NCBI GenBank assembly: GCA_965207845.1
Contig: CBDBNU010000003.1
Location: 314,492 to 378,491 of the forward strand
Reading direction: 5' to 3'
DNA length: 64,000 nucleotides
From: Dehalococcoidia bacterium
Lineage (GTDB): Bacteria > Chloroflexota > Dehalococcoidia > Lucifugimonadales > GCA-2712585
Below are positions 6,019 through 32,627 of this stretch, piece by piece. A program made the position numbers and the translations under genes. Each line of letters starts with the position of its first letter. The stretch's first letter is position 1. The notes under the pieces were generated by a model. It had not been told where the DNA came from. It saw nothing but the letters and a program-made list of their open reading frames with translations, and did not search any database.

Positions 6019-6025
6019 GGGAGGG

Positions 6026-6183
6026 TCACCCTCACCCCTTCGGTACACTCAGGGCAGGCTTCTGCCTTCCTCTATGGAGGAGGGCTTTGCACAACTCGCC
6101 GTTCAGCCCCGCCGCCACCCAGATTACCCTCACCCCTTCGAAAGGCTCAGGGCAGGCTCAATCCTCTCCCACGACGGGAGAGG
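6026..6183. repeat. intergenic composite palindromic repeat cluster
   Basis: Two copies of tcaccctcaccccttcg..ctcagggcaggct (6026-6060 and 6125-6158), plus the hairpin cctctccc-acgac-gggagagg (6163-6183). Confidence 0.75.
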
Positions 6184-6198
6184 AGGAAAGAGGGGCGG

Positions 6199-7116
6199 TT
6201 AGGCGGGGGGAGGCGCGGGGGCGGGGTTGTAGAGGTCGACGCCGATGGTGATGGGGAAGACCTTGATGAGTTCCTCTACAGTCCAGCGGCCTTCTTTGTT
6301 TATGGTGCGGACGGCTTCCGGCTGGTTCAGCAGGCTCACGAGACCGTCGGTTACGTAGAAGACCTGACCGTTGACGTGAGAGGACTCGTCGGAGGAGAGC
6401 CAGGTGACGAAGGGGGCGATGTCGTCGGCCTCGCCCACGAGGGCGCCGCCGCCCGCGCCTGCGATGCCCTGGGCGGCGCGAAGCTGCCGGGCCGAGGTGG
6501 GAACGGCGCCAATCATGCGGGTTCTGGCGCTGGGGGCGATGGAATTGGCGGTGACGCCGTACCGACCCAAGTCTCGCGCGGCCACGCGGGTCAACCCGGC
6601 GATGCCGTCCTTGGCGGCGCCGTAGTTGGCCTGGCCGGAGTTGCCTATAAGGCCGGAGGTGGAGCTGAAGGTGATGATGCGTCCCGAACGCTGCTGGCGG
6701 AAGAGGATGCTGGCGTGCTTGACCACGGAGAACGTGCCCTTGAGGTGCACTTGAATGACGGCGTCCCACTCGTCTTCGGTCATGTTGAAGATCATGCGGT
6801 CCCGGAGGATTCCGGCGCAGGTGACGACAATGTCCAGCTGGCCGAAGCTGTCTAGGGCTGACTGTACGATGGCCTCGCCGCCCTCCATGGTGGCGACGGA
6901 CTCGTAGCAGGGGACGGCCTCGCCGCCGCTGGCGCGGATTTCGTCGACGACGCTGTCGGCGATGGCGATGGAGCCGCCGGAGCCGTCGAGTTCGGCGCCG
7001 GGGTCAACGACGACGACCTTCGCGCCTTCCCGGGCCATGAGCATGGCGATGCCTCGCCCGATGCCGCGGCCGGACCCGGTTACTATTGCCACCTTGTCTT
7101 TCAACAACTCTGTCAA
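6199..7116 (-). CDS. short-chain dehydrogenase/reductase (hydroxyacyl-CoA dehydrogenase-like) with C-terminal extension
   Basis: TGSGRGIGRGIA cofactor motif and catalytic YGAAK. TTG start preceded by GAGG. Close paralog of 8257-9183. Confidence 0.9.
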   Translation of the reverse strand: MTELLKDKVAIVTGSGRGIGRGIAMLMAREGAKVVVVDPGAELDGSGGSIAIADSVVDEIRASGGEAVPCYESVATMEGGEAIVQSALDSFGQLDIVVTCAGILRDRMIFNMTEDEWDAVIQVHLKGTFSVVKHASILFRQQRSGRIITFSSTSGLIGNSGQANYGAAKDGIAGLTRVAARDLGRYGVTANSIAPSARTRMIGAVPTSARQLRAAQGIAGAGGGALVGEADDIAPFVTWLSSDESSHVNGQVFYVTDGLVSLLNQPEAVRTINKEGRWTVEELIKVFPITIGVDLYNPAPAPPPA

Positions 7117-7176
7117 TTTTGTACCTCTATCCTAGTCTTTGGTCGGGGTTCGTTTTGATTAGAGGGAGATGGGAAG

Positions 7177-7213
7177 TCACCCTCACCTCAATCCTCTCCC
7201 ACGACGGGAGAGG
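7177..7213. repeat. intergenic palindromic repeat (same family)
   Basis: tcaccctcacctcaat followed by the hairpin cctctccc-acgac-gggagagg (7193-7213), identical to the hairpin at 6163-6183. Confidence 0.7.
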
Positions 7214-7291
7214 AGGGAAGAGGGGTTTCTTTGGGGCGAGATTCTTCGTCGCGGGGCCTCCTCCGAATGACATGAATGGAGAGGGGGAGGG

Positions 7292-8256: not shown

Positions 8257-9183
8257 CTAGCCGGGCTGTCGCGCCGGCGCGGGGTTGTCTATGCCCCTGG
8301 TGAGATAGTTTCTGGCGAGGGGGGCGAGCTTGTCCAGGTCCCAGCGCTCTTCGCCGTTGAAGATGGAGCGCTCCGGGCGTGGCTGGGACATGAGGGAGAC
8401 GACGCCGCCGTAGACGAGGAAAGTCTGGCCGTTTACATCGGCGGCGTAGTCGCTTGCGAGGAAGACGGTGAAGGGCGCAACGTCGTCGGGATCTGCGGAC
8501 TCGAGGTCGTCCTCGCCCTCGATGGCGGCGACACCCTGGGCGGCGCGGATCTGGCTGGCGGCGCTGGGGATGTCCGACGTCATGCGGGTGTTGGCGCGGG
8601 GAGCGATGGAGTTGGCGGTGACGCCGTAGCGACCCATGTCGCGGGCGACGACCTTGGTGAAGCCGGCGATGCCGGACTTGGCGGCGCCGTAATTGGCCTG
8701 GCCGGAGTTGCCGATGAGGCCCGACTCCGAGCTGAAAGTGATGATGCGTCCTGAACGCTGCTGGCGGAAGAGGATGGCGGCGTGCTTGACGACGGTGAAG
8801 GTGCCCTTGAGGTGGACGGCAATGACGGAGTCCCATTCCTGTTCCGTCATGTTGAATAGCATGCGGTCGCGGAGGATGCCGGCGCAGGTGACGACTATGT
8901 CGAGCTGGCCGAAGTTATCGAGGGCCGATTGGACGCTGGCCTCGCCGCCCTCCATGGTGGCGACGGACTCGTAGCAGGGGACGGCTTGGCCGCCGTTGGC
9001 GCGAATTTCGTCGACGACGCTGTCGGCGATGGCGATGGAGCCGCCGGAGCCGTCGAGTTCGGCGCCGGGGTCAACGACGACGACCTTCGCGCCTTCCTGG
9101 GCCATTAGGATGGCGACGCCGCGTCCGATGCCGCGGCCGGACCCGGTTACTATTGCGACCTTGCCTTCAAGAACACCCGGCAT
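8257..9183 (-). CDS. short-chain dehydrogenase/reductase, paralog of 6199-7116
   Basis: The track ORF extends to 9393, reading through a repeat element. The ATG at 9183 is preceded by GGAG and gives MPGVLEGKVAIVTGSGRGIGRGVA, aligning with the paralog N-terminus. Confidence 0.9.
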   Translation of the reverse strand: MPGVLEGKVAIVTGSGRGIGRGVAILMAQEGAKVVVVDPGAELDGSGGSIAIADSVVDEIRANGGQAVPCYESVATMEGGEASVQSALDNFGQLDIVVTCAGILRDRMLFNMTEQEWDSVIAVHLKGTFTVVKHAAILFRQQRSGRIITFSSESGLIGNSGQANYGAAKSGIAGFTKVVARDMGRYGVTANSIAPRANTRMTSDIPSAASQIRAAQGVAAIEGEDDLESADPDDVAPFTVFLASDYAADVNGQTFLVYGGVVSLMSQPRPERSIFNGEERWDLDKLAPLARNYLTRGIDNPAPARQPG

Positions 9184-9280
9184 TTTTTCTCCTTGTTGTT
9201 TGGGATGGGATTTGGGTTTAGCAGGGACTACTGTACAAAGGACGGGGGGAAAGTGCAATTTTCTAGAGTTGGTGGGGAGA

Positions 9281-9391
9281 GGGCGGTTCGCGAACCGCCC
9301 CTGCCAGCCAGAAGAGAGGAATGGCAGGGTGGGTCGCTCTGTGGTTGGGGTGGTTTGAGGGCAGGGTATTGGCTCCTGCCTTCGCAGGAGC
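9281..9391. repeat. intergenic palindromic repeat cluster
   Basis: Perfect 20-nt palindrome gggcggttcgcgaaccgccc (9281-9300) and hairpin gctcctgc-cttc-gcaggagc (9372-9391). Confidence 0.75.
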
Positions 9392-9840: not shown

Positions 9841-9951
9841 TCTTTTTCCCTTTTTGTTGGTGGGTTTTTCTGTCTGGTTTCAGGTTAGATTATTGCCGCT
9901 ATTGGGAAACCGTCGCGGAACACACAATGAGAGTTATCGATGATTGGGGAA

Positions 9952-10019
9952 TCACCCCCATCCGAACCTTCCCCCGTCGAGGGGGAAGGGCTAAGATGGA
10001 TTCCGGCTTCTGCCGGAAT
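9952..10019. repeat. intergenic palindromic repeat cluster
   Basis: tcacccccatccgaa, then hairpin ccttccccc-gtcga-gggggaagg (9967-9989), then hairpin attccggc-ttct-gccggaat (10000-10019). Confidence 0.75.
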
Positions 10020-10041
10020 GACGATTCATTGCGTTGGCCTC

Positions 10042-10500: not shown

Positions 10501-10622
10501 TGTTATTCTCCTTGGGGGGCCTTGCTGCAAGAGTCAGCAGGGGTGATTTGCGGCCCTGCTTGGTGCGGCACGAGTGTACGCAGGGGTGGGGAAGAGTGTC
10601 AAGGAGGGGGGGAGGGTTGGAG

Positions 10623-10753
10623 TCACCCCCATCTCAATCTTCCCCCATCAAGGGGGAAGAGGTTAGAGGCGAGGGGGAGGGCGGTTCGCGAACGGCCTCA
10701 ACTGGCGCCAATGCGGGTTAAGGGTAAAGAATGGGCCCCCGCCTTCGCGGGGG
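10623..10753. repeat. intergenic palindromic repeat cluster
   Basis: tcacccccatctcaa, hairpin tcttccccc-atcaa-gggggaaga (10638-10660), an imperfect ggcggttcgcgaacggcc, and hairpin cccccgc-cttc-gcggggg (10736-10753). Confidence 0.7.
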
Positions 10754-12478: not shown

Positions 12479-12691
12479 TTAGGTGTAGACGGCGAAGATT
12501 ACGGCGTCGTTCTTGTTTTCTTCACTGAAGAAGAGGATGGCGCAGCGCCTGCCCGTTTGCGCATGAGAGGAGGAGATGTTGCGGGCGACGGGAACGGAGC
12601 TGATCCAGACGGAGAGGCTGCCCTCCAGCTGGATGGTGGCCTTGTAGGTTGAAGAGCTGAATGCCTTGATGACGCCTTTTTTGATTATCAT
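12479..12691 (-). CDS. small OB-fold-like phage spike/plug protein (gpV / gp5 N-terminal-like)
   Basis: 70 aa from the ATG at 12691. The pattern GVIKAF..STYKATIQLEGSLSVWISSVPVA...GRRCAILFFSEENKNDAVIFAVY resembles baseplate-spike OB domains. Last gene of the capsid module. Confidence 0.5.
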   Translation of the reverse strand: MIIKKGVIKAFSSSTYKATIQLEGSLSVWISSVPVARNISSSHAQTGRRCAILFFSEENKNDAVIFAVYT

Positions 12692-12762
12692 GTCATACCT
12701 TAGTTGGGTTGGGTTTTGGTTGGGAAGGGTGGGCGTCCGCACTGGATGCAGTGCGGAGGGGG

Positions 12763-14760
12763 TTAGACCCCCGACAGGGTGAGGGTGTGGGAATATCCCG
12801 GCGGGCCACCCGGGCCGCGTCTGAAGTCCATCTCAAGGCCCGTGACGCGACGGCGGGCCCCGTTCAGACCCGCCGCCGGGTCCGTGATGCTCACCACGTC
12901 GAGCAGCTCCAGCCCGCAATTGACGGGGGCCTCCAGAAGACCGTCCCGGGTGGACCTTCGCTCCCGGGACAGCAGGCTGTCGCTCCGCTGCCTGGCGGCG
13001 TCGGTCGTTTCCAGGTTGATGTCGTAGACTTGCAAGAGCCTGTCGGCCATTGCGGACACGGAGTTCCAGTCGAGGGATTCCTGTAGCGTGTCGAGGCCGT
13101 AGGTCTGGATGCGGTTGTACCGGGGCGCGCGGAACAGGTACCGCCCGCGGTTAACGGGGTGGTCGTCGCCGTAGGAGTAGGAAGCGGCATCGTCGGCGTC
13201 GAGCAGCTTGACGGCGGGGACGCCCCGGCGGAAGAAGAGGACCTCCGGCACGGTGGCCATGAGCCGCTTCACGGCGTCGGCGGCGGTGGTGTTGGGGTGG
13301 ATGGTGAAGGCGGGTCGCTGTCGCTGAAAGGTGTCGCCGGCGGTGAGGACATCCAGGCTCAACCCGGCCCTGGCGAGGATGTACTCCACCATGTCCTCGA
13401 CGGAAGTGTATCCCTTGATCCAGTTGTGCTGGTAGCGGGCCCGCCATCGCTCCAGCAGGGCCCAACCGTCTTCCAGGTATAGGGCAAGCAGGGCTTTTCC
13501 GGCTTCCGAGCGGCGTTCCAGCGATCGTACCCAGTAGGCGGGGCCGGGGGAATGCTCCACGCCGTCGGAGGTTACGTAGCCGGGGTCGAAACGCACCCGC
13601 GCGCCGGGCACCAGGGGCGAACCGCTCTCCAGGCCGGCGTTGTTGTAGCGACCGTGGTCGTTGCGGAGGAGCAGGGTGGCCCCACCGTCGGATACCCCTT
13701 CCACCAGCTTAGCCTCCAGCACATCGGCGGTGAGACTGCGGCTGGCGGGAGAGGTGGCACTCCAGACCTGGGTGGAGGTGGAGAGCCAGAGGGTTGTTGA
13801 GCTTCCCGCGATGGCGACGCCGGCGTATGGGTTGTCGTTGAAGGGGATGGGTTCGCGCCAGCGGGCGGTGCGGAAGGAGCTGTTGTCCGGGGCGAAGGTC
13901 CAGAAGGCGCGGCCGTAGGAATTGGGACCGGCGTAGGACTCCTTGAAGAAAAGGCGGAAGGTGTCGGCATTTGCCAGGTAGGGGTGAGAGAAGGACACTT
14001 CAGAGCCGGAGTCCGCCCGGGCGAGGTTGGTGATGCTGGTGAAGCGACCCCGTGCGTTCTCTATGCCGTCGCCGTAGACCGTGGTCCACACGCGGGAGGA
14101 GCCGGAGGAGGTGACGCCGCACACCACCACGTTCCAGTCGGTGCTGAAGGCGCAGGCAATGCCTTCTATCTTCCTGATGTAGGAGGACTGCGCCCAGGCG
14201 GCGGGGGTGGTCCACGTGCCGTCGATGCGACGCATGCCGTACAGGTTGTGGCTGCTGCTGGCGTAGAAGAGGCCGATCTTGCCGTCGGGGCTCACGGAGG
14301 CGGCCAGGTGGGAGACGCCGGAGACGGCGGGATAGAGGAGCCGCGCATCTCTGCTCCAGGTGACGCCGTCGTCGTTGCTCTCGCGGTAGCGCAGCTCGCG
14401 GCGGTTGCCGCTGTGAACGTAGACCATGAGGACGTAGGAGCCGTTGCCGCAGAGGGCGACTCCGGCGTCGGGATAGGCGTTGTTCAGGTATGTCCATTGG
14501 GTGAAGACGCTGCTTCCCGTGGCGTTGGCGACGCGCTGCACGTACAGCCTGGAGTTCGACCTTCGGACGCGGGCCCGGATGAGGGCGCCGCCGGAAGTCA
14601 GGTACAGGGCGTGCCGGGCGGGGGTCTCGTCCAGGTTCAGGTGTTGCGTGAACACGGGGTGGAAGACGTGGGGCAGCCGCCGGTCCACTGTGACGCCCAG
14701 GTAGGGCTGGCGGCGGGCGCTCTTCTGCGCTTCCAGCAGGGTTGGGGAGAGCCCGCGCAT
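12763..14760 (-). CDS. phage tail/hub-like protein with N-terminal BNR (Asp-box) beta-propeller-like domain
   Basis: The true start is the ATG at 14760, overlapping the upstream stop (TGATG). The track ORF extension to 15438 is a Pro/Arg-rich artefact overlapping gene 14760-15383. Asp-box SNDDGVTW is present. The C-terminal half resembles gpD/XkdQ-type tail hub proteins by pattern only. Confidence 0.75.
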   Translation of the reverse strand: MRGLSPTLLEAQKSARRQPYLGVTVDRRLPHVFHPVFTQHLNLDETPARHALYLTSGGALIRARVRRSNSRLYVQRVANATGSSVFTQWTYLNNAYPDAGVALCGNGSYVLMVYVHSGNRRELRYRESNDDGVTWSRDARLLYPAVSGVSHLAASVSPDGKIGLFYASSSHNLYGMRRIDGTWTTPAAWAQSSYIRKIEGIACAFSTDWNVVVCGVTSSGSSRVWTTVYGDGIENARGRFTSITNLARADSGSEVSFSHPYLANADTFRLFFKESYAGPNSYGRAFWTFAPDNSSFRTARWREPIPFNDNPYAGVAIAGSSTTLWLSTSTQVWSATSPASRSLTADVLEAKLVEGVSDGGATLLLRNDHGRYNNAGLESGSPLVPGARVRFDPGYVTSDGVEHSPGPAYWVRSLERRSEAGKALLALYLEDGWALLERWRARYQHNWIKGYTSVEDMVEYILARAGLSLDVLTAGDTFQRQRPAFTIHPNTTAADAVKRLMATVPEVLFFRRGVPAVKLLDADDAASYSYGDDHPVNRGRYLFRAPRYNRIQTYGLDTLQESLDWNSVSAMADRLLQVYDINLETTDAARQRSDSLLSRERRSTRDGLLEAPVNCGLELLDVVSITDPAAGLNGARRRVTGLEMDFRRGPGGPPGYSHTLTLSGV

Positions 14761-15383
14761 CAGGATCTCCCGCCGGCGGGCTGGTGGAGGGGACGATTGA
14801 GGCGGCGCACCCGCATGGAGGTACGGCGGCTGAGGTCCGACAGACCCTGATGGAAGCGGGCCAGATTCTCCTGCCCCCACTCCAGGAAGTGCCGCCAGGT
14901 GTGTGGGCCGCCCACGTTGATGCTGTTGATGGCGTGGCCGGACAGGTCCATGGCGGCGTAACCCGCGGCCCCGGTCAGGACCAGCTCCTCCAGGTGGGAC
15001 GCAATGGTGGAGGTTGTGGCGTTCAGGGTGTGAAGGCGGCCGTAGTGTACCTTCACCGCTTCGCCGGCATCGGGTCTCTCCCCGGTCAGCAGGGTGATGG
15101 TGGCTCCCCGAAGGAAGAAGTCCACGTAGGAAGGGGGGCTTTCGCCGACGGGGAACTCCACCGCATCGACCCTCACCAGTTCCGTCTGGGTAGCGAGGGA
15201 GAGGGTGATGCCGTCGGCGCCGGTCTGGATGGTGGTCACGTCGGGCCGGGGCTGGGCCGCGCTGAGTTCGCGCAGCGCCCGGCCCAGGTGACGGTCCAGC
15301 TGGGCGTCGGTCCACCGGTAGTCGGAGGAGTCTTCGTCGTGAAGGTCTATGCGGAGCCGGTTTCGCATTTCTGTGAGGGTCAT
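14760..15383 (-). CDS. phage head-tail connector/adaptor (gp6-like)
   Basis: The N-terminus LTEMRNRLRIDLHDEDSSD...LDRHLGRALRE fits the gp6-like connector signature. AAGGAG RBS. Lies directly after the capsid gene. Confidence 0.6.
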   Translation of the reverse strand: MTLTEMRNRLRIDLHDEDSSDYRWTDAQLDRHLGRALRELSAAQPRPDVTTIQTGADGITLSLATQTELVRVDAVEFPVGESPPSYVDFFLRGATITLLTGERPDAGEAVKVHYGRLHTLNATTSTIASHLEELVLTGAAGYAAMDLSGHAINSINVGGPHTWRHFLEWGQENLARFHQGLSDLSRRTSMRVRRLNRPLHQPAGGRS

Positions 15384-15420
15384 TTGGGAGTCTCCTTGGT
15401 GTTGTCGTTGGGTAGAGTAG

Positions 15421-15532
15421 GGGCGGTTCGCGAACCACCCTCGCGGATATGGGTTGGGGTTTGGTGGAGCGTCACCCCCATCCCTTCGGCAGGCTCAGGA
15501 CAGGCCTAACCTTCCCCCGTCGAGGGGGAAGG
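15421..15532. repeat. palindromic repeat cluster lying between capsid and connector genes
   Basis: gggcggttcgcgaaccaccc (15421-15440), tcacccccatcccttcggcaggctcaggacaggcc (15472-15506), and hairpin ccttccccc-gtcga-gggggaagg (15510-15532). Confidence 0.75.
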
Positions 15533-15548
15533 AATAAGAGGTGAGGGG

Positions 15549-16439
15549 TTAGGGACGGACGCCAGTGAGCTTGGCGAGCTTGAGGGCGTTGAAGACGGCG
15601 ATGGCGACGTACCACTTGACGCGGACGCGGGTGGCGTCCTTGGTCTCGAGGCTGCCGACGCGCTCCACCTGGAGGCCACCGGGGGAGGTGAGGCCTGCGA
15701 CGGCGCCTTCGCCCCACTGGAGGGCGTAGATAGTGGAGCAGTCGCTCTTGTTGCCGACGGTCCTGACGTCGCTCACGTAGTCGCTGACGCCGACGGGGAT
15801 GCCGTCGTAGTAGTCGGTCATCATGCCGAACTGGTCCCTGTCGGCGACGACGACGCCGCTGCCGGCGGCGCGGCCGAGGGCGGAGAGCTTGCGGCGGGAG
15901 CGGCGGCTCATGATGAGCATGTCGGGCTTGCCGCCGCGGACCTTGTCGATCATTTCGTCCAGCTTGTCGAGGGTCAGGGCGCCGCCGTTGTCGCCCATTG
16001 CGACGGTCTGGGTGTCGGCGGTCAGCTTGTCGATACCGTTGAAAGCCTTGGAGTCGGCGGCGCTGTCGCCGTCGATGAAGGTGGTGTCGAACTGCTGCTG
16101 GGTGGCCTTGGACTTGAGGGCGACGACTGTTGCCTCCAGGTCCTGAAGGTTGGAGCGGGTAGCCTTGACGAAGTTGTCCACGTCGGCGTCGCCGCCGAGG
16201 ATCTTCAGGTTGGCGGTGACCTGGGTGAAAGTGGGTGTGGACTCGTTCCAGGTGTCGCCGGGTTCGTAGAAGGAGACCGAGGGAAGGGCCTTTTCCTGGT
16301 TGTAGGTAAGGCCGTTGCCGACCACCTCGATGAAGGGGATGGACTGGAGGACGGGGCTGTCCTTGACGACGGTCTCGATGACGCCGGTTAGGAGCATGTC
16401 CTGGGAGAGTTTTGCGGATTCCGTTAGGGTTAGAGCCAT
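15549..16439 (-). CDS. phage major capsid protein (HK97-fold family, no delta domain)
   Basis: 296 aa. The overall pattern matches phage major capsid families (LTYNQE...ANLKILGGDADVDNF...DMLIMSRRSRRKL...IYALQWGEGAVAGL...VRVKWYVAIAV). GGAGG RBS 7 nt upstream. Confidence 0.85.
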   Translation of the reverse strand: MALTLTESAKLSQDMLLTGVIETVVKDSPVLQSIPFIEVVGNGLTYNQEKALPSVSFYEPGDTWNESTPTFTQVTANLKILGGDADVDNFVKATRSNLQDLEATVVALKSKATQQQFDTTFIDGDSAADSKAFNGIDKLTADTQTVAMGDNGGALTLDKLDEMIDKVRGGKPDMLIMSRRSRRKLSALGRAAGSGVVVADRDQFGMMTDYYDGIPVGVSDYVSDVRTVGNKSDCSTIYALQWGEGAVAGLTSPGGLQVERVGSLETKDATRVRVKWYVAIAVFNALKLAKLTGVRP

Positions 16440-16535
16440 AAGAGCACCTCCGATGAAGATTTGATGCAGAGATGCTAGAACATGGATGCTATGGCTGTAA
16501 AGGAAAAGTTGTCACTTTTTGGAGGGCGGCATGAT

Positions 16536-16596: not shown

Positions 16597-17253
16597 ATGC
16601 TTGTTCCGTCAGATCCCAAGATATATCACATTGTCCATGTGGACCGACTAGCGTCAATTGTCGCCGACGGTCATTTGTGGGCAGATTCGGAAGTTCGAGA
16701 GCGTGGGATTGGGGGAACGAACATTGGAATGACCAACATCAAGCAGTACAGGCTACGTAGACGCATAAGGAGCCACGAAGACCTGAGAGTTGGTGACTGC
16801 GTACCATTCTACTTCTGCCCGCGCTCCGTTATGCTCTACGTCATCTATAGAAGAGATCATCCTGAGTTGCAGTATCGGGGAGGTCAAGGCCCTATCGTCC
16901 ACCTAGAAGCGAACATGCACGAAGCGATTGACTGGGCCGACTCCACAGATCGACGTTGGGCATTCACCTCCTCAAATGCTGGCTCAGGGTACTTCCGGGA
17001 CTACTCCGACTTACGGCATTTGAACGAGATTAACTGGGATGCAGTTGGAGCTGATAGATGGTCTGGAGTAGACGTCGACGTTTCCATTAAAGAGAGCAAG
17101 CAAGCGGAATTCCTGATGGAGAAGTCTTTCCCGTGGCACTTAGTTTCCACGATTGGCATCCGTTCACGCAGGATATATCCTAGCGTCCAGCAAGCTCTAA
17201 CCGGAGGTCGGCACAGGCCGAAAGTGGAAATCAAGCCGGGTTGGTATTATTGA
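16597..17253 (+). CDS. darT: DarT, ssDNA thymidine ADP-ribosyltransferase toxin (DUF4433)
   Basis: Strong resemblance to characterised DarT: IYHIVHVD, VPFYFCPRSVMLYVIY, the catalytic-Glu motif KQAEFLM, and the C-terminal PGWYY. Confidence 0.9.
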   Translation: MLVPSDPKIYHIVHVDRLASIVADGHLWADSEVRERGIGGTNIGMTNIKQYRLRRRIRSHEDLRVGDCVPFYFCPRSVMLYVIYRRDHPELQYRGGQGPIVHLEANMHEAIDWADSTDRRWAFTSSNAGSGYFRDYSDLRHLNEINWDAVGADRWSGVDVDVSIKESKQAEFLMEKSFPWHLVSTIGIRSRRIYPSVQQALTGGRHRPKVEIKPGWYY

Positions 17254-17267
17254 CCGGAGGTGGCGGC

Positions 17268-18329
17268 ATGATTGAGGAGAAGAAGGGTGATCTGTTTCAG
17301 GAAGACGTAGAAGCGCTCGTGAACAGCGTGAACTGTGTGGGGGTGATGGGACGGGGAATTGCACTTCAGTTCAAGAAGGCTTTTCCCGGGAATTTCAAGG
17401 CATACGCCCAGGCGTGTAAGCGAGGCGAGGTACAACCGGGCCGCATGTTTGTCTACGACTTGGGGCAGATGACAAATCCTCGCTACATCATCAATTTCCC
17501 AACCAAACGCCACTGGCGGGCCAAGAGCCGCATTGAAGATGTAGAGGCTGGCTTGGAGGCATTGGTTACCGAGATCAGGGAGCGTGATATTCGTTCCATT
17601 GCCATACCGCCGCTGGGCACGAATTTGGGTGGGCTGGGATGGGAGGACGTCAGGCCAAGGATCAAGGAGGCCCTAAGTGAAGTCGAGAACCTGGAGGTAA
17701 GACTTTTCATGCCGGGGGCCGGACCAGCAGACGATCGCCCTAACCCGTCAACCAAGTCGCCCAACATGTCACGGGGGCGTGCTGCCCTGATGTGCCTTAT
17801 GGACCTATACGAGAGGGCGCTGCTTGATCCTTTCGTTACCCTTTTGGAAATCCACAAGCTCATGTACTTCATGCAGGAAGCAGGCGAAAACCTGCGTCTG
17901 AAGTTTCAGAAGGGCTACTACGGGCCCTATGCTGAGAATTTGAGGCATGTGCTGAAGGTGATGGAGGGGCACTATATTTCAGGATACCTGGGGGTAGGCG
18001 ACGCCCCGGGAGATGAGTTGAAGCTAGTGCCCGGCGCTGTAAATGAGGCAAAGACCGTTCTGGAGAGGTTTCCCAGGACGAAGGAAAGGCTGGAGCGTGT
18101 TTCTGGGCTGGTGGAGGGCTTCGAGTCTTCCTTCGGGTTGGAGCTATTGGCCACGGTGCACTGGGTGTTTGCCGAAGACCCGTCCAGGAGCGACGAAGAG
18201 GTTGTCTTCTACACCCATCGTTGGAATCAGCGGAAGAAGCAGTTTTCGGAGCGTCAGATACGGCTGGCTCTCCAGACGTTGAGGGACAAGGGATGGATTA
18301 AATCGGCGGATTCGGTCACGCAAGTGTGA
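17268..18329 (+). CDS. darG: DarG, macrodomain antitoxin with C-terminal DarT-binding domain
   Basis: Macrodomain N-terminus (GDLFQEDVEALVNSVNCVGVMGRGIALQFKKAFP). The ATG at 17268 is preceded by GGAGG and lies just after the darT stop. Confidence 0.9.
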   Translation: MIEEKKGDLFQEDVEALVNSVNCVGVMGRGIALQFKKAFPGNFKAYAQACKRGEVQPGRMFVYDLGQMTNPRYIINFPTKRHWRAKSRIEDVEAGLEALVTEIRERDIRSIAIPPLGTNLGGLGWEDVRPRIKEALSEVENLEVRLFMPGAGPADDRPNPSTKSPNMSRGRAALMCLMDLYERALLDPFVTLLEIHKLMYFMQEAGENLRLKFQKGYYGPYAENLRHVLKVMEGHYISGYLGVGDAPGDELKLVPGAVNEAKTVLERFPRTKERLERVSGLVEGFESSFGLELLATVHWVFAEDPSRSDEEVVFYTHRWNQRKKQFSERQIRLALQTLRDKGWIKSADSVTQV

Positions 18330-20633: not shown

Positions 20634-21812
20634 TTGCGAGCAGCAGACAGGATGAACAACCTGGGTACGGAATCGGCATTCGAGGTGTTGGCTAAGGCCA
20701 AGGCCCTGGAGGCCAAGGGACACGACGTGGTGCACCTGGAGATAGGGGAGCCGGACTTCGACACGCCGGACCACATCGTGGACGCGGGCATTCAGGCGCT
20801 GCGGCGGGGGTACACTCACTACGGGCCTTCGGCGGGACTGCCGGAACTGCAGGAGGCCATCGCCGACAACGTGAACGCGACGCGCGGGCTGGATGTGGAA
20901 CCGGGGCAGGTGGTTGTGACGCCTGGCGGCAAGCCGATAATGTTCTTCACCATCATGGCGCTGGTGCAGCCGGGCGACGAGGTGCTGTATCCGAACCCGA
21001 GCTTCCCCATCTACGAGTCGATGATCAACTTCTGCGGGGCCGAGCCGGTGCCCGTGCGGCTGCTTCCCAACGAGGGAAACCGGCTGGACCTGGACGACCT
21101 GGAACGGAAGCTCTCCGACCGCACCAAGCTGGTGATTTTGAACTCGCCGCAGAATCCGACGGGGTCCGTTATGGGGCGGGAGGACGTGGAGCTGCTGGGC
21201 CGGCTGCTGGGTGAGCGGGACGACGTGACGATTCTCTCCGACGAGATCTATAAGGACATAATCTACAAGGGCGCGCACCACAGCATTGCGTCGCTGCCGG
21301 GGATGGGAGAGAGGACGGTCATCCTGGACGGCTTTTCAAAGTCCTACGCGATGACGGGCTGGCGGCTGGGGTACGGGGTGTTCCCCCACTGGCTGACGGA
21401 GCACGTGGTGAAGCTGGCGGCGAATAGCGTTTCCTGCGCCGCGAGCTTCACGCAAATGGCGGCGATACGCGCGCTGGAGGGACCGCAGGAGCCGGTGATG
21501 AATATGGTGGATGAATTTCGGAAGAGGCGCGATTTGATCGTCGAGGGGCTGAACAGCATCCCCGGCATCGAGTGTCCGGTGCCGGACGGGGCCTTCTACG
21601 TGTTCCCCAGCATTGCGGGGACGGGTTTCGAAAGCGGCGATTTTCAGGAGCGGGTGCTGAACGAGGCGGGGGTGGCGCTGCTGAATGGCGGCGCGTTCGG
21701 CGGGTACGGGGAGGGGTTTGTGCGCCTGTCCTACGCCAACTCTGCGGAGAACATCGCGAAGGCGTTGGAGCGGCTGGCGGGCTTTGTGAGGGAGAACGGC
21801 CGCAGGGGTTAG
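20634..21812 (+). CDS. class I/II pyridoxal-phosphate aminotransferase (aspartate aminotransferase-like)
   Basis: The motif SKSYAMTGWRLGY contains the PLP lysine. Start is uncertain: TTG 20634 after GGAGGAG, ATG 20652, or track start 20610. Confidence 0.9.
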   Translation: MRAADRMNNLGTESAFEVLAKAKALEAKGHDVVHLEIGEPDFDTPDHIVDAGIQALRRGYTHYGPSAGLPELQEAIADNVNATRGLDVEPGQVVVTPGGKPIMFFTIMALVQPGDEVLYPNPSFPIYESMINFCGAEPVPVRLLPNEGNRLDLDDLERKLSDRTKLVILNSPQNPTGSVMGREDVELLGRLLGERDDVTILSDEIYKDIIYKGAHHSIASLPGMGERTVILDGFSKSYAMTGWRLGYGVFPHWLTEHVVKLAANSVSCAASFTQMAAIRALEGPQEPVMNMVDEFRKRRDLIVEGLNSIPGIECPVPDGAFYVFPSIAGTGFESGDFQERVLNEAGVALLNGGAFGGYGEGFVRLSYANSAENIAKALERLAGFVRENGRRG

Positions 21813-22180
21813 GGTTTTTCGCGATTCTCGTCGGCTAAGACTTTCTCTAGCTGTGGGATGAGGGCGGGGATGTCGTTTTGGACGATATCCCAGATAATGT
21901 CGTCGTCAACGCCGGAATAGAAGTGGGTGACCCGGTTGCGAGTACCAATGATTTCGCCCCAAGCGATATGAGGATAAGACAGCCTGATGGAGTCTGGTAT
22001 TTTGGCCGCCGCCTCCCCTATCATTTCGATTGTCTTTAGGGTGGCTCTATAGACACGCAGATCGTTGACAAACTCGCTCTGGTCCAGCCCGCGGGTAAGG
22101 CACAAGACCTCTTTGGCGAACTGGAGCATGTCTCTCACATAGATTGTCCAGAGGAATCTTGTTTCGCTAGACTCAGACAT
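21809..22180 (-). CDS. hepT: HepT (DUF86/HEPN) toxin
   Basis: Intact RX4HXY motif (RNRVTHFY). Overlaps the upstream MNT-containing gene by 8 nt, as in canonical mntA-hepT operons. Confidence 0.85.
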   Translation of the reverse strand: MSESSETRFLWTIYVRDMLQFAKEVLCLTRGLDQSEFVNDLRVYRATLKTIEMIGEAAAKIPDSIRLSYPHIAWGEIIGTRNRVTHFYSGVDDDIIWDIVQNDIPALIPQLEKVLADENREKP

Positions 22181-22871
22181 TTATGACGTCTCTTTCCACG
22201 AATGGAAGAACTTCGGAACGCAGTGACTTTTGGGTGGCGAGGTCAACGGTCCGGCCCAGTTGCTCTTCCAGGTAGAAAAGTGTGCCGAAGTAGCCTTTCG
22301 ACGTGGCCGGACCGTTGAACTTCACCATTACGTCCACGTCGCTGTCTTCGGCGGCCTGATCGCGGGCGAAGGAGCCGAAGAGGGCGAGTTCGGTTACGCC
22401 GAAACGTTCTTCCAAGATAGGTTTGTGCTCTCTTAGGGTGTTGAGAATTTGTTGTCGGCTTATTGACGCCTTTCCGCCGGACGGACTACGTTGAGGTATC
22501 AGTAGTTGAAGTTCCTCGGAGTTTGCCAAGAGCTCATGGAGTTGAGGGGGGAGGGTTGATAGGTCGGTCTGAATGATCTCCCAGATTCCCTTATCGTTCG
22601 CCCTGGAAAGGGGGTAGACGCTCCGGTCTTGCGTTTCTATGAACTTGCTCCATTGGATGTGCGGATAGGCTTCCCTAATGGGAACGGGAACCTGGGAAGC
22701 GGCACCGCCGATGCGTTCGATGTTCCATAACGTGGCGTGATAGATTCTACCGTCGTCCAGAAACGACTTCTGGTCCAAGCCATGTGTGTATGTCAAGGCA
22801 GTTTGCGCGTACCGGATCATATCCTGCACATAGATGGTCCAGAGGCGGGCTTGAGTTGGGGAGTCTGACAT
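22173..22871 (-). CDS. fusion protein: degenerate HepT-like (DUF86) domain plus MNT nucleotidyltransferase antitoxin domain
   Basis: The N-terminal ~125 aa align with HepT 21809-22180, but the RX4HXY positions read QDRSVYPL. The C-terminal ~100 aa carry the MNT motif GSFARDQAAEDSDVDVMV. No stop or usable start separates the two halves. Confidence 0.8.
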   Translation of the reverse strand: MSDSPTQARLWTIYVQDMIRYAQTALTYTHGLDQKSFLDDGRIYHATLWNIERIGGAASQVPVPIREAYPHIQWSKFIETQDRSVYPLSRANDKGIWEIIQTDLSTLPPQLHELLANSEELQLLIPQRSPSGGKASISRQQILNTLREHKPILEERFGVTELALFGSFARDQAAEDSDVDVMVKFNGPATSKGYFGTLFYLEEQLGRTVDLATQKSLRSEVLPFVERDVINV

Positions 22872-22973: not shown

Positions 22974-23996
22974 TCAGGCGCGTCTGATTACTTCTTCCAT
23001 CATGCGGCGGAGGCGTTTGGGGCGGTCTTCGTCGGGGACGTTGATGCTGTACTGGCGGACGCCGATGGCGGCGTTTCGTCGCAGCTTTTCGATGCACTGT
23101 TCCGCAGTGCCGCTGATGCCGCCGAATCGTACCAGCAGGTAATCCCGGACGCCGTACTCCACGGCGAGAGCGTCGTATCTCCGAAGCTGTTCCGGCGTGG
23201 GGCGTCCGTGGGTGCTGAGGTCGTAGGCTGCGGCTAGGGCGCGGATGCCCTCCCAGTATTGCTCAGGGACGAACTTGCCCTCCAGGGTGAAGCGATTGAG
23301 GTAGTTGGCCTCCCGGGCCGGGCCGCCCTGGGGGTCAATCTCCTCCTCTTCGGTGTCGCGCAGGTTGAAGGGGACGGACCACCAGACGTCGATGTCGTTG
23401 GGGTTTCTACCGGCGATGCGGGCACCCTCCGCGAGGGCCTGCAGGGACCCTTCCACCACCTCCGGGGTGGTGCCGGTGCCGATAACCACGCCGTCGGCGA
23501 GTTCCCCCGCCAGCCGCAGGGAGCCGCGGGCGTGGGCCGCCATGTAAATGGGGATTCTATTCTCCCTGGTCGGCCAGCTGAGCCTGGCGGTGCCGCCTTG
23601 GAATTCAGCTTCGCCCGAGGTCAGGAGGGCGCGGAGGGCGGTGACGTATTCGCGGAGGGAGGCGAGAGTTGAGGCGCGACGTCCGGCGTTGTAGACGCCG
23701 CTGTTGCCGGAGCCGATGCCGATGCAGACGCGTCCGGGGGCGATTTCGGCCAGGGCGGATGCCGCGCTGGCTGTTACGACGGGATGCCGCGTCACGGGGT
23801 TGGTGACCCACGAGCCGAAGGGGAGTCGACGGGTGTTGAGGGCGACGTGAGTGAGGGACACCCAGATGTCGCGGTAGAGGGCGGGGGAGTCGGCGATGCC
23901 GATGCGGTGATAGCCGAGAGCCTCGGCGGCCTGCACCCACTCGACCACTTCTGCGTGGTGCCCCGGCCTGGAGGTGGCGGCGAATTTGAGGTTCAT
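22974..23996 (-). CDS. LLM-class (luciferase-like) F420-dependent oxidoreductase
   Basis: Luciferase-like TIM-barrel pattern (GYHRIGIADSP...GIGSGNSG...). F420 biosynthesis genes are present in the window. Confidence 0.8.
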   Translation of the reverse strand: MNLKFAATSRPGHHAEVVEWVQAAEALGYHRIGIADSPALYRDIWVSLTHVALNTRRLPFGSWVTNPVTRHPVVTASAASALAEIAPGRVCIGIGSGNSGVYNAGRRASTLASLREYVTALRALLTSGEAEFQGGTARLSWPTRENRIPIYMAAHARGSLRLAGELADGVVIGTGTTPEVVEGSLQALAEGARIAGRNPNDIDVWWSVPFNLRDTEEEEIDPQGGPAREANYLNRFTLEGKFVPEQYWEGIRALAAAYDLSTHGRPTPEQLRRYDALAVEYGVRDYLLVRFGGISGTAEQCIEKLRRNAAIGVRQYSINVPDEDRPKRLRRMMEEVIRRA

Positions 23997-24110
23997 TTGT
24001 TGCTCGATACGAGGATGGTTGAGGTCGTTCTTTATTATAGGGTGGCAGTGGTTGTGGGTATAGCAAGGGGTTGGATGCGTCGCTGCCTTAGGAGTGATGC
24101 GTGGGTGAGA

Positions 24111-24239
24111 GGGGCGGTTCGCGAACCGCCCCTACGGGTATGTTCAGGGGTAGGGGCTTCTCACCCCATCCAAACCTTCCCCCGTCGGAGGGGGAAGGCT
24201 TAAGAGGGGAGGGGACTGGATTCCGGCTTTCGCCGGAAT
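24111..24239. repeat. palindromic repeat cluster downstream of the scaffold gene
   Basis: Perfect 22-nt palindrome ggggcggttcgcgaaccgcccc (24111-24132), hairpin ccttccccc-gtcgga-gggggaagg (about 24176-24198), and hairpin attccggc-tttc-gccggaat (24220-24239). Confidence 0.75.
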
Positions 24240-24259
24240 GACGGATTTGCAGAGTTCTG

Positions 24260-24778
24260 CTAGGTGGAGAGGGCGGAGCGGATTTTTTCCATGGGGGTTA
24301 GGGCGGAGAAGTTGGCGGGGCCGCGGGTGGGAGAACCGGCGGGGAGTCGTTCCCTGGCCAGTTTTTCCTCGACCTCTCGGCGTACCTGGTGGACCAGGGC
24401 CCTGGCTTCGTCGAAGGAGCGGTCAATCTCCTCGACGGTCTCGCCGGCGACCATGGACTCCGGTGCTTCCGGCATGGATTCCAGCAGCATCGTCCGGTAG
24501 CGGGACACCGCCTCGGCCAGGGATTTCTGAGCCGAGGATAGTTTTTCCCCTTTCTCACGGAGCCGGACTTCGGATTGCTCAAGTTGCTCTTCCAACTCTG
24601 CTACTCGGCCTTCCAGCGGCGAGGGTTCTTCCGGGTTGTTGTTTTCATCCTCTGCAGGAGGGGTTTCTGCTTCCTCGATATCCTCGGTCGGGGGACTCGC
24701 TATTTCGTGGTTGTTCTCGGGCGATTCACTCTCTGTGGAGAGATTCTCTGCCTCGGTGTGAGAAATTTCCTTTTCCAT
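24260..24778 (-). CDS. phage scaffolding-like protein (acidic, coiled-coil)
   Basis: 172 aa with an acidic low-complexity N-terminus and a coiled-coil (RVAELEEQLEQSEVRLREKGEKL). Starts 13 nt after the portal stop. GAGGAGG RBS. Confidence 0.55.
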   Translation of the reverse strand: MEKEISHTEAENLSTESESPENNHEIASPPTEDIEEAETPPAEDENNNPEEPSPLEGRVAELEEQLEQSEVRLREKGEKLSSAQKSLAEAVSRYRTMLLESMPEAPESMVAGETVEEIDRSFDEARALVHQVRREVEEKLARERLPAGSPTRGPANFSALTPMEKIRSALST

Positions 24779-24791
24779 GATTCCTCCTCTT

Positions 24792-26117
24792 TTAGTTGTT
24801 CATGCTTTCTTCAGCAGACGGATCCGACTCGCGCCGGATGGTCTGCTGTTCCGAATCGGGGTCCGTGACGCCCAGGCGCTCCATGGCGCGGCGTCGGCTG
24901 TGGATGCCCGCCTCGACGAGGCTGCGTTCCTGCTGCACCAGCCTAGTGCGGTCCTGGGGAAGCAGCGGCCCCCAATCGACGCGGATCCAGAGGTCGCCGA
25001 AGTCGTGACCGGCGAACCGTTCCAGCATCATCAGGGCCATCTCGGCCCGACGGCGGTAGACCCAGGAGCGGATCAGCCGCTTGCGCTGAACACGTTGCAG
25101 CAGGGGGTGCATCTCCATCTCAAGGGCAACTCCGGAGAGACGCTGGGGGTTGTGTCCGAAGCTGATGCGGGGCGCTTCCGAAAGGTCGTGAAGGGCATCG
25201 TAGACCAGCTGTATATAGTCGGCGTGGAGCTTGGCGCCGCCGCCCTGGAGCAGGTCCAGCAGGTAGGCGCGGGCCTGGTCGGGAAGCTCCCAGACGGCCC
25301 CCGGCTCCACGGCGATGTCGCGGGCCTCTTCCACGCCCTCCAGCACGGCGATGGGGTTGCCGGAAAGTTCCAGTATGGTGGAAAGCTGGGACAGGGCGCG
25401 GTTCAGTTCCCGCGCCGGTTCCATGAGGATGGGAACGTCGGAGACGCCCCAGAAACGCTTGGGGTCCCGAAGGTTGGGGAATATGACGAAGGGGATGAAG
25501 CCGTAGGGGTTGGGGCGTTCATCGACGAGGGCGTCGCCGACCCATAGCTGAAATTCCGACCTGGTCCAGCCCTCGACCACGGTGGCCATGCCGTCTTGGT
25601 CGCCCGTCTTGACGTTGTAGAGGTTGTCGGCGTCCTCGGCTGAGATGCGGTAGCGGCTGGCGACGCGCCAGACCCGGGATGGATCGTCGCCGATCCACCA
25701 GGCGAAGATGCCCTGAACGTCGGGGGCGGTCACGCGGACGCGGCGCTCTTCCGGGTCCCAGATAACCTTGAAGCAGCCGTCGCCGAGCACGGCGGCGTCG
25801 AGCTCCGTGGCCAGGTCAAGCTCCTCCAGGCGGTTGTCCTGGTAGACGCGGCGCACGGCGATTTCGGCCTGGCGGGCGCGGGCCATGCCTTCGTCGGTGG
25901 CGTCCACCGGCTCCATGGCGAGAATGCCGCCGGAGGCCATGTAGGACGTGACCTTCTCCAGCAGCGCCCGCACGTAGTTGAAGGTGAGCCGCCGTTCGCC
26001 GCGACGCTGGCGGCCCTGCCACTGGCGTCCGGCGAAGAAGCTCATGTTCTCAGCGTAGGCTTGCAGCCGCCGGGAATCTCTTCGCGCCACCAGCTGGGGC
26101 AGATTTACTTCTTCCAT
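24792..26117 (-). CDS. phage portal protein (SPP1 gp6-like family)
   Basis: 441 aa. N-terminal FFAGRQW motif, with overall length and pattern typical of portals. GAGGAGG RBS 6-7 nt upstream of the ATG at 26117. Confidence 0.85.
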   Translation of the reverse strand: MEEVNLPQLVARRDSRRLQAYAENMSFFAGRQWQGRQRRGERRLTFNYVRALLEKVTSYMASGGILAMEPVDATDEGMARARQAEIAVRRVYQDNRLEELDLATELDAAVLGDGCFKVIWDPEERRVRVTAPDVQGIFAWWIGDDPSRVWRVASRYRISAEDADNLYNVKTGDQDGMATVVEGWTRSEFQLWVGDALVDERPNPYGFIPFVIFPNLRDPKRFWGVSDVPILMEPARELNRALSQLSTILELSGNPIAVLEGVEEARDIAVEPGAVWELPDQARAYLLDLLQGGGAKLHADYIQLVYDALHDLSEAPRISFGHNPQRLSGVALEMEMHPLLQRVQRKRLIRSWVYRRRAEMALMMLERFAGHDFGDLWIRVDWGPLLPQDRTRLVQQERSLVEAGIHSRRRAMERLGVTDPDSEQQTIRRESDPSAEESMNN

Positions 26118-29336: not shown

Positions 29337-29422
29337 GGTCGGGTGCCTGAGTGGCCGAAAGTGCCTGACTCCAAATCAGGATTGCGTAGCGCGCATCGTG
29401 GGTTCGAATCCCACCCCGACCG
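29337..29422 (+). tRNA. class II (long variable arm) tRNA with anticodon read as CCA; identity uncertain (Trp-like anticodon and G73 on a Ser/Leu/Tyr-type body)
   Basis: Hand fold: acceptor GGTCGGG/CCCGACC, anticodon arm CCTGA-CTCCAAA-TCAGG, 17-nt variable arm ATTGCGTAGCGCGCATC, T-arm GTGGG-TTCGAAT-CCCAC, G73, no CCA. The D-stem is weak (CCT/AGT, C10-U25 mismatch). Confidence 0.6.
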
Positions 29423-29676
29423 CAAAATAATGTCCTTGTCTATTCACCAGAGATTCTTATGTGCCTTATAATTTACACTGCGGTAGTCTAGTCTGTCAAC
29501 AACAACAAAAAGTTTGAGATAAATTTAATATTTTCTTTGATTAATTACAAAATTATGAACTAAATCGCCATGTAAGGACAACTTTAGCATCCAAATGAGC
29601 GACAATTACTCACATATCTTGAGCAAATGAGAGCCCTCATAAGAGTTTTTCTCTCGTAATTTAGTTTCGCCGCATA

Positions 29677-29985
29677 TTGACACAGGAAATGGCAATGTTT
29701 GAAGAAGATCACTGTCAAATTGAACAAATCCCCATGGCCCAGGCTCGAGGTATGTTAGGGCGCCTACCGGAAAAGCTTTCTAAGGAGAATCGGGCAGTTG
29801 CCTTGACTAAACGCGGTAAGCCTGTGTTGGTCGTTATACCTTGGGAACTGTATGAATCTATCGCTGAGACAATGGAGATTCTCGAAGATGCCGAGATGAT
29901 GGATGGCGTTCGTAAGGGCATCCAGGATATGCGGGAAGGCAACCTGATCTCCCACGATGAAGTGGTGGCGCGGCTGGGGGACTAG
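29677..29985 (+). CDS. Phd/YefM-family antitoxin, apparently orphan
   Basis: The core RAVALTKRGKPVLVVIPWELYESIAETMEILED is typical of Phd/YefM. The exact start is unclear (TTG 29677 or later ATGs). No toxin ORF follows. Confidence 0.7.
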   Translation: MTQEMAMFEEDHCQIEQIPMAQARGMLGRLPEKLSKENRAVALTKRGKPVLVVIPWELYESIAETMEILEDAEMMDGVRKGIQDMREGNLISHDEVVARLGD

Positions 29986-29992
29986 GCCGGGG

Positions 29993-32414: not shown

Positions 32415-32627
32415 GAATTGCCTCCATCGGCAGCCACCTGTTAGCTGAGATGTTCTAAGCATAGAACAACCGTGCACTCGCGTCAAGGATGGGGAGTCAC
32501 TAATGATACGTTGGAGGGCCGCCAACCAGTTTTGAACGGCCCAAGAAATGAAGTATTGCGCAATGTGCAAATACTACGGATGTCCTCGTTGTTTGATACA
32601 ATTGCAATCCGCAGCAAAGAATTTCTC

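Follow-up and report, generated by a model that had tools for sequence, protein, structure and literature searches.

Host-type palindromic repeats between the capsid and adaptor genes of a phage-like gene set in a Dehalococcoidia chromosome

The spacer between the major capsid protein gene and the head-tail adaptor gene in the 64,000-nt stretch of DNA analysed here (the window) is built from three small palindromic repeats, arranged as a mosaic. All three are non-autonomous and belong to the host genome, which is a Chloroflexota genome of the class Dehalococcoidia. These units (called modules A, B and D below) entered a short spacer one by one, recently, after the capsid cluster was already fixed in the chromosome. 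The repeat cluster belongs to known kinds (REP-type repeats) and is in itself ordinary repeat biology. The best joint explanation, to which we assign a probability of about 0.6, is that a host repeat mosaic was gained stepwise and that its hairpins serve as a stabiliser or attenuator of the capsid transcript.

The spacer (15384-15548, minus strand) is 165 nt long, from the capsid stop codon (15549-15551, minus strand) to the adaptor ATG (15383), and its modules are read in the order B, D, A on the gene-sense (minus) strand. The capsid gene (15549-16439, minus strand; 296 aa, GC3 0.91) encodes a product that matches phrog_212 (4e-70) and the Pfam family SU10_MCP/GP7, and the product of the SU10-type head-tail adaptor gene (14760-15383, minus strand; 207 aa), the "connector" of the original prediction, matches Pfam SU10_adaptor. 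On the sense strand, the capsid TAA stop is followed by a 16-nt C-rich flank (15533-15548), the B hairpin CCTTCCCCC-TCGAC-GGGGGAAGG and then TTAG, which together make up the 5′ part of module B (15506-15548, minus strand). Next comes module D, GCCTGTCCTGAGCCTGCCGAAGG (23 nt; 15483-15505, minus strand), which is nested between the B hairpin and the G-rich 3′ tail of B, GATGGGGGTGA (15472-15482, minus strand); a 31-nt C-rich stretch, module A as GGGTGGTTCGCGAACCGCCC-CTAC, and 33 nt that include a Shine-Dalgarno sequence complete the spacer. The Shine-Dalgarno, AAGGAG (15392-15397, minus strand; read from the sequence), lies 8 nt upstream of the adaptor ATG. The B hairpin begins 16 nt past the capsid stop and has a 9-bp stem (arms 15524-15532 and 15510-15518), a 5-nt loop and a folding energy of -18.3 kcal/mol. 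Module A (15417-15440, given here on the plus strand) consists of a GTAG foot (15417-15420) and the palindrome GGGCGGTTCG/CGAACCACCC; its hairpin in the sense RNA has an energy of -12.5 kcal/mol and arms of 10 nt each that are 90% complementary; at the one imperfect pair, the sense strand can wobble (U.G) and the opposite strand is mismatched (C/A). An 891-aa ORF (12763-15438) was rejected as an artefact: its Pro/Arg-rich N-terminus comes from reading through the adaptor gene in the wrong frame. The true gene, for a 665-aa protein, spans 12763-14760 and shares one base with the adaptor stop, an overlap also seen in relatives.

All three motifs that the original prediction had listed for the spacer recur between metabolic genes at 6-10.8 kb, far above chance. 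The palindrome GGGCGGTTCGCGAACCRCCC of module A has four sites in the window (9281, 10679 in degenerate form, 15421 and 24112; 0.04 expected), all of them intergenic and between 9 and 24 kb. The hairpin CCTTCCCCCGTCGAGGGGGAAGG is present exactly at 9967 and 15510 (0 expected) and as variants at 24173 and 10639, and the tcaccc..ctcagg.caggc unit is also found at 6026-6060 and 6125-6160. By spacer, two B+D copies lie between convergent GNAT and SDR genes (6019-6198, minus strand), a B copy with the covarying stem CCTCTCCC/GGGAGAGG at 7165-7230 (minus strand), an A copy in the MaoC-SDR spacer (9279-9302, no strand assigned), a cluster of C and B modules in the FAS1_DH-MaoC spacer (9945-10027, minus strand), and a degenerate A copy with a B copy in the ABC-FAS1_DH spacer (10615-10700, minus strand). 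The B stem forms in the window are CCTCTCCC/GGGAGAGG, CCTTCCCCC/GGGGGAAGG and TCTTCCCCC/GGGGGAAGA. A second cluster had been placed just after the scaffold gene, and it is indeed there (24110-24245, minus strand), with module C at 24219-24240, module B at 24161-24214 and module A at 24110-24135; it follows a 172-aa gene in the scaffold position (24260-24778), itself after the portal gene (24792-26117). The luciferase-like gene downstream of this cluster (22974-23996) is distinct from the scaffold-position gene. A TTGCTA...TATAAT pair near 24030-24070 was rejected as a promoter, having a 21-nt spacer and not being called by the promoter scan. Positions 25-64 kb contain no copy of the gap modules, so the window alone does not show a genome-wide distribution. 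All repeat copies fall within positions 1-30000 and in one orientation; these positions have a strongly positive GC skew, of 0.07-0.25 per 2 kb, and the sense-strand intergenic RNA is C-rich and G-poor, with stop codons often read TAACCCC. Repeats of another sort, Pro/Thr/Glu-rich tandem coding repeats (cccacgcc.gaacc units), occur at 33291-33421 and 60004-60308, within two large predicted proteins or directly behind them; a trypsin-like domain is present in one of the two (32472-35105). In addition, the paralogous short-chain dehydrogenase genes at 6513-7096 and 8580-9163 share a 584-nt similar stretch.

With its GTAG foot, module A is the type of REP that RAYT/TnpA_REP transposases of subclass 2.4 mobilise. 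Its full form, GTAGGGGCGGTTCGCGAACCGCCCCTAC, is found in about 20 phyla, and a scan of a genome collection placed the exact A 20-mer in at least 120 stretches from about 20 phyla; Chloroflexota was the commonest source (about 42 stretches among the matches listed), and Acidobacteriota, Desulfobacterota, Cyanobacteria, Bacteroides, Nitrospinota, Myxococcota and others also contributed. The full unit is GTAG-GGGCGGTTCGCGAACCGCCC-CTAC, with the GTAG...CTAC consensus at 143 loci among the matches listed, and the flanks are unrelated between loci. The double foot, with a reverse-complement C[TC]AC end, is present in most copies of other genomes. Clustering of the ORFs that neighbour A loci linked the module to Y1_Tnp (IS200-like HuH) genes that contain the palindrome in their reading frame, in the part that separates the HuH motif from the catalytic Tyr region; such genes were found in Dehalococcoidia, Chloroflexota and Calditrichaceae sequences (loci L053, 280-765; L069, 1865-2368; and L012, 1-270, respectively). 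In these Y1 HuH transposases of different phyla the 28-bp palindrome is translated in frame as ..GRGGSRTAPT.., and at L069 a second A copy lies about 70 nt downstream of the Y1_Tnp gene and a second RAYT-like gene bears a different GTAG-type palindrome at the same position.

Quentin et al. 2018 (PMC6006769) describe a REP in frame within the transposase gene as a trait that only TnpA_REP subclass 2.4 has (this subclass equals RAYT group 4), and the wider GTAG superfamily has been defined and includes a Chloroflexi member (Di Nocera et al. 2013, PMC3733652). Since this in-frame placement in Y1_Tnp genes is the hallmark of subclass 2.4, module A belongs to a known kind. As these two papers describe them, GTAG REPs of subclass 2.4 share with module A the GT[AG]G foot (directly at the stem base in the gap copy), the consensus CTAC far end and three G-C pairs at the bottom of the stem, as well as extragenic copies, dispersed in a close relative in the case of module A, and copies in frame in the transposase gene, with a scatter over many phyla. 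Unlike them, each A copy of the window retains only one foot (the 15.4-kb copy has GTAG but tcgc at its other end, and the 24.1-kb copy has CTAC without GTAG), and the exact 20-mer identity over about 20 phyla is broader than we found described in PMC6006769 and PMC3733652. Neither the window nor the relatives' DNA examined yielded a RAYT gene, the match to a cognate transposase being in other genomes only; closely spaced A copies have ordinary genes and no transposase between them. A full-text literature search for the repeat sequences and the peptides of their spurious ORFs returned nothing relevant.

Module B is a covarying 9-bp hairpin with a G-rich tail. Over 17 copies its stem is 99.3% paired and includes three compensatory pairs, a value reached by 0 of 500 shuffles. 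In genome stretches not selected for B, a B profile gave matches in Chloroflexota loci only, and the B-type hairpin and tail are also common in IMG/VR contigs; in this analysis B is a hairpin-plus-G-tail repeat mostly of Chloroflexota. Its orientation relative to genes is uniform in homologous same-strand loci (18/18) and mixed in other contigs (about 23 versus 17; also in L231). The 23-nt unit D nests at one fixed point inside B, and two orthologous positions have the long form in the window and the short form in contig c28705, a relative considered below. The presence or absence of D at the identical internal point of B was seen when window positions 15483-15505, 6137-6159 and 6039-6061 were compared with the orthologous c28705 spacers. 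Because the same internal B point is involved in orthologous copies, a site-specific insertion of D, or gene conversion between long and short B forms, is suggested. We know of no mobilising enzyme for B or D. No description of either module was found in the literature, and a search of Rfam gave only tRNAs at gathering score, the sole match in the gap being a chance one (E = 0.77). Nor do B and D look like MITEs, which have terminal inverted repeats and target-site duplications: B consists of one hairpin flanked unequally, by C-rich sequence on one side and G-rich on the other, and the comparisons of filled with empty sites contain no target-site duplication.

The history of the spacer can be read from three relatives. 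The RadA protein encoded at 266-1702 of the window is 92% identical to a protein on the 28.7-kb metagenome contig c28705 and 87% identical to a protein of the complete 3.11-Mb "Dehalococcoidia bacterium" chromosome OZ253467.1, and capsid homologues that are 89-94% identical lie at the same locus in both of these and in a third genome, CAYQLZ010000002. The gene order at the locus is conserved with all three: portal, scaffold-position gene, luciferase-like oxidoreductase, HepT/MNT toxin-antitoxin, aminotransferase, DAO, PALP, a variable slot, capsid, adaptor, 665-aa protein, small protein, tRNA-Leu, DUF4389, ABC and genes beyond. The capsid-adaptor spacer is 55 nt with no modules in the 3.11-Mb chromosome, 106 nt with B only in CAYQLZ, 145 nt with B and A (without D) in c28705, and 165 nt with B, D and A in the window. 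The empty 55-nt orthologous gap and the two intermediate states bear out the proposed insertion into a resident gene cluster. Metabolic spacers vary likewise; for example, the C+B cluster of the FAS1_DH-MaoC spacer is present in the window only and missing from both comparable orthologous spacers. A relative, in turn, carries a clean 25-nt GTAG-REP after the stop of the hub gene, at a site that is empty in the window. Further GTAGGGGCG-headed palindromes exist, including GTAGGGGCGGCTCGCGAGCCGCCC, which is a compensatory variant of A; on the 3.11-Mb chromosome there are six of them in 8 kb at a site 0.5 Mb away and another about 2 Mb away, and A copies or variants lie at about 0.78, 1.30 and 2.76 Mb. 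These presence/absence differences in capsid and metabolic spacers, together with the distant sites on the relative, lead to the conclusion that these are host-type repeats which have moved recently and are dispersed in the genome of a close relative, and that colonisation was stepwise. The host-type character claimed from the window alone thus holds, the same families lying between metabolic genes both here and on related chromosomes, 0.5 and 2 Mb away included.

The variable slot between the PALP and capsid genes has different contents in each genome. In the window (16597-18329) it holds DarT-DarG at low GC (0.54), in c28705 a macro-domain gene only (L289, 5953-7065), in the 3.11-Mb chromosome a 935-aa N6-methylase-like gene (L291, 7147-9954), and in CAYQLZ nothing; it looks like a small defence hotspot. 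There is one HepT/MNT pair in the window (21809-22871) and three in tandem in the 3.11-Mb relative (L291, 1394-3627).

The original prediction also took the repeats as a sign of long residence and expected them to be absent from phage genomes. Long residence is correct for the locus, which is syntenic in the three relatives and has a capsid gene with a dN/dS of 0.13-0.16, and the repeats are not what proves it. The expected absence fails for predicted viral genomes: the A palindrome was found in 23 IMG/VR stretches and lies between head genes of Mu-like viral contigs. On one contig it occurs between or at the ends of the terminase, portal, minor head, protease and capsid genes, and on another it accompanies a Mu-type transposase and an endolysin; the IMG/VR contigs that bear A may be integrated temperate phages. 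Since the palindrome is pan-bacterial and is also in predicted viral contigs, repeat colonisation alone cannot date residence, which corrects the tempting inference that the presence of such palindromes dates a prophage.

Two precedents bear on what the hairpins might do. In the Escherichia coli malEFG operon, REP hairpins give differential expression, the malE-malF REP being an mRNA stabiliser, and in phage T7 the terminator T-phi after gene 10, which is phage-encoded and has a U-tract for T7 RNA polymerase, has a comparable effect. The cluster studied here resembles E. coli REPs and BIMEs in being made of short GC-rich palindromes in an intercistronic or 3′ operon region with a probable role as RNA 3′ hairpins. 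Unlike BIMEs, it mixes unrelated families (one A, one B and one D) and has neither alternating orientation nor defined linker motifs, so that the BIME arrangement of one-family REPs that alternate with conserved linkers is absent from the gap. As with T-phi, a stem-loop directly follows the capsid gene and precedes adaptor and tail genes (T7 genes 11-12, adaptor and nozzle), and an excess of capsid would be expected; the stem-loops in the gap differ from it in being host repeats without a U-tract.

Several results point to a post-capsid hairpin slot in this family. A scan called promoter-like sites ahead of the capsid gene, at 16472-16515 on the minus strand, but not in the gap, and the spacer RNA folds more stably than shuffled sequence on the sense strand (z = -2.0; antisense z = 0.07). 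A hairpin of at least -15 kcal/mol strength lies within 90 nt of the capsid stop in 60% of 84 capsid-family loci versus 2% of shuffles and 20% after other long ORFs (Mann-Whitney p = 1.6e-10), the 84 loci being phylogenetically related and therefore non-independent in this statistic. The post-capsid hairpins of the family come from different sequence families. On the basis of this hairpin frequency, the sense-strand folding and the promoter and terminator scans, we infer that such a slot exists and that host repeats fill it here. In other lineages of the capsid family the post-capsid gap contains different pan-bacterial palindromes (L231, 4877-5207; L294, 10892-11215; L235, 6922-7034), among them units of the form gtcattctgag...gaagaatc and ggattcccgc....gcgggaatgac. 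Capsid and adaptor would be co-transcribed from a promoter upstream of the capsid gene, and the stem-loops of -18 and -12.5 kcal/mol would act on the RNA as 3′-end protectors and partial barriers to read-through, which should leave capsid protein in excess over adaptor and hub protein. Such an effect would be dispensable, because the close relative with the 3.11-Mb chromosome has no hairpin in this gap.

That empty site, and the differences in presence and absence among close relatives in general, are equally what is expected if the modules are purely selfish or neutral insertions in a permissive non-coding gap with no effect on capsid or adaptor expression. The identical modules in many unrelated spacers and the mixed orientation of B elsewhere also favour this substantial rival, which we nevertheless consider rather unlikely: loci of this capsid family as a rule have a strong hairpin just past the stop and differ in the sequence family that provides it, and stable 3′ hairpins should, by analogy with established REP biology, physically block exonucleases. 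It is improbable that the hairpins terminate transcription fully and that a promoter of their own drives the adaptor and hub genes. Two GC-rich stem-loops do lie within 165 nt, and the C-rich, G-poor sense RNA between them could perhaps load Rho, but the stem-loops have no U-tract, no terminator-like site was found in 12-17 kb (0 versus 3.1 expected in shuffles), and no promoter-like site precedes the adaptor ATG downstream of the hairpins, where the 33 nt after module A have only the Shine-Dalgarno. The termination between capsid and connector that had been envisaged therefore finds no direct support, as both a U-tract and an adaptor promoter are lacking. Least probable is an origin as ancestral regulatory DNA of the phage, passed on together with the capsid module, and not as a host repeat. 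Post-capsid hairpins are common among relatives and the A palindrome occurs in Mu-like viral contigs, as this would have it; against it, close relatives have an orthologous gap that is empty or has other contents, the empty site contradicting the reading, identical modules are also seen in spacers of metabolic genes and far away on the chromosome, and the 165 nt had no match in GenBank phages (blastn). A stepwise-gained host repeat mosaic with a probable effect on the capsid transcript is thus the explanation preferred here.

The genes around the spacer had been described as a phage structural operon. The capsid and connector calls are supported by the phrog_212 and Pfam matches, but the genes form a fragmented set that is interrupted by conserved cellular genes. 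Its members are terminase-like (29993-31402, minus strand), portal (24792-26117, minus strand), 172-aa scaffold-position, capsid, adaptor and 665-aa propeller/hub genes and a gene for a small protein, and they lie on the minus strand in three groups, at 12479-16439, 24260-26117 and 29993-31402 (see also loci L289, L291, L293 and L294). The 665-aa protein (12763-14760, minus strand) has an N-terminal beta-propeller and a C-terminal tail hub fold like that of gp27, Mu gp44 and VgrG; the model has a pLDDT of 85.5, and the hub domain was identified by fold search only. The capsid and the 655-aa protein had no match when the Protein Data Bank was searched by sequence. Compared with the three relatives, dN/dS is 0.13-0.16 for capsid, 0.09 for portal, 0.24-0.38 for adaptor and 0.18-0.28 for the 665-aa protein, and it is 0.05-0.20 for neighbouring cellular genes. 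In two of the three comparisons no gene of the region has a lower dS than the capsid gene, whose GC3 is also the highest in the window. A genome with a 72%-identical capsid has a compact module of a 151-aa gene, capsid, adaptor, a 640-aa gene and a 71-aa gene among housekeeping genes, and the ancestral order, in which portal, scaffold, capsid, two extra genes, adaptor, hub and small protein are contiguous, is seen on a more distant IMG/VR contig. The set does not have the features of an ordinary prophage: it is split by conserved cellular blocks, it is syntenic in three relatives, and no integrase is present among the ORFs scanned. Under purifying selection (dN/dS 0.09-0.38) and syntenic as they are, these phage-like genes are not a decaying prophage. 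A tRNA-Trp followed by an AT-rich stretch of about 550 nt (29337-29990) adjoins the terminase-like gene and could be an old integration junction.

A tentative interpretation, drawn from gene content and comparison and somewhat less likely to be right than wrong, is that the set is a domesticated minimal podovirus-like particle system (GTA-like or otherwise co-opted) that is inherited vertically in Dehalococcoidia/SAR202-type Chloroflexota, and that host REP-type hairpins were recruited after the capsid gene for capsid stoichiometry. The proposed system would comprise the terminase-like, portal, scaffold-position, capsid, adaptor and beta-propeller/tail-hub proteins and a 70-87-aa protein, encoded in three blocks in this lineage. 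Like gene transfer agents of the RcGTA type, it has phage-derived head and tail genes at conserved positions that appear to be vertically inherited and under purifying selection, and no integrase in the scanned ORFs. It is unlike RcGTA in that the window set is in three blocks, podovirus-like, minimal and of Dehalococcoidia, its particles and DNA packaging being putative. A literature search found no report of a Dehalococcoidia gene transfer agent.

Taken by themselves, the repeats are a textbook-style REP colonisation of an operon spacer, for which the comparative evidence of stepwise insertion is unusually clean. The more valuable lead is the capsid gene, which is as conserved as RadA and belongs to a fragmented phage-like set under purifying selection across Dehalococcoidia; this set is perhaps a domesticated system of virus-like character that has yet to be described, in a lineage that is abundant and mostly uncultured.
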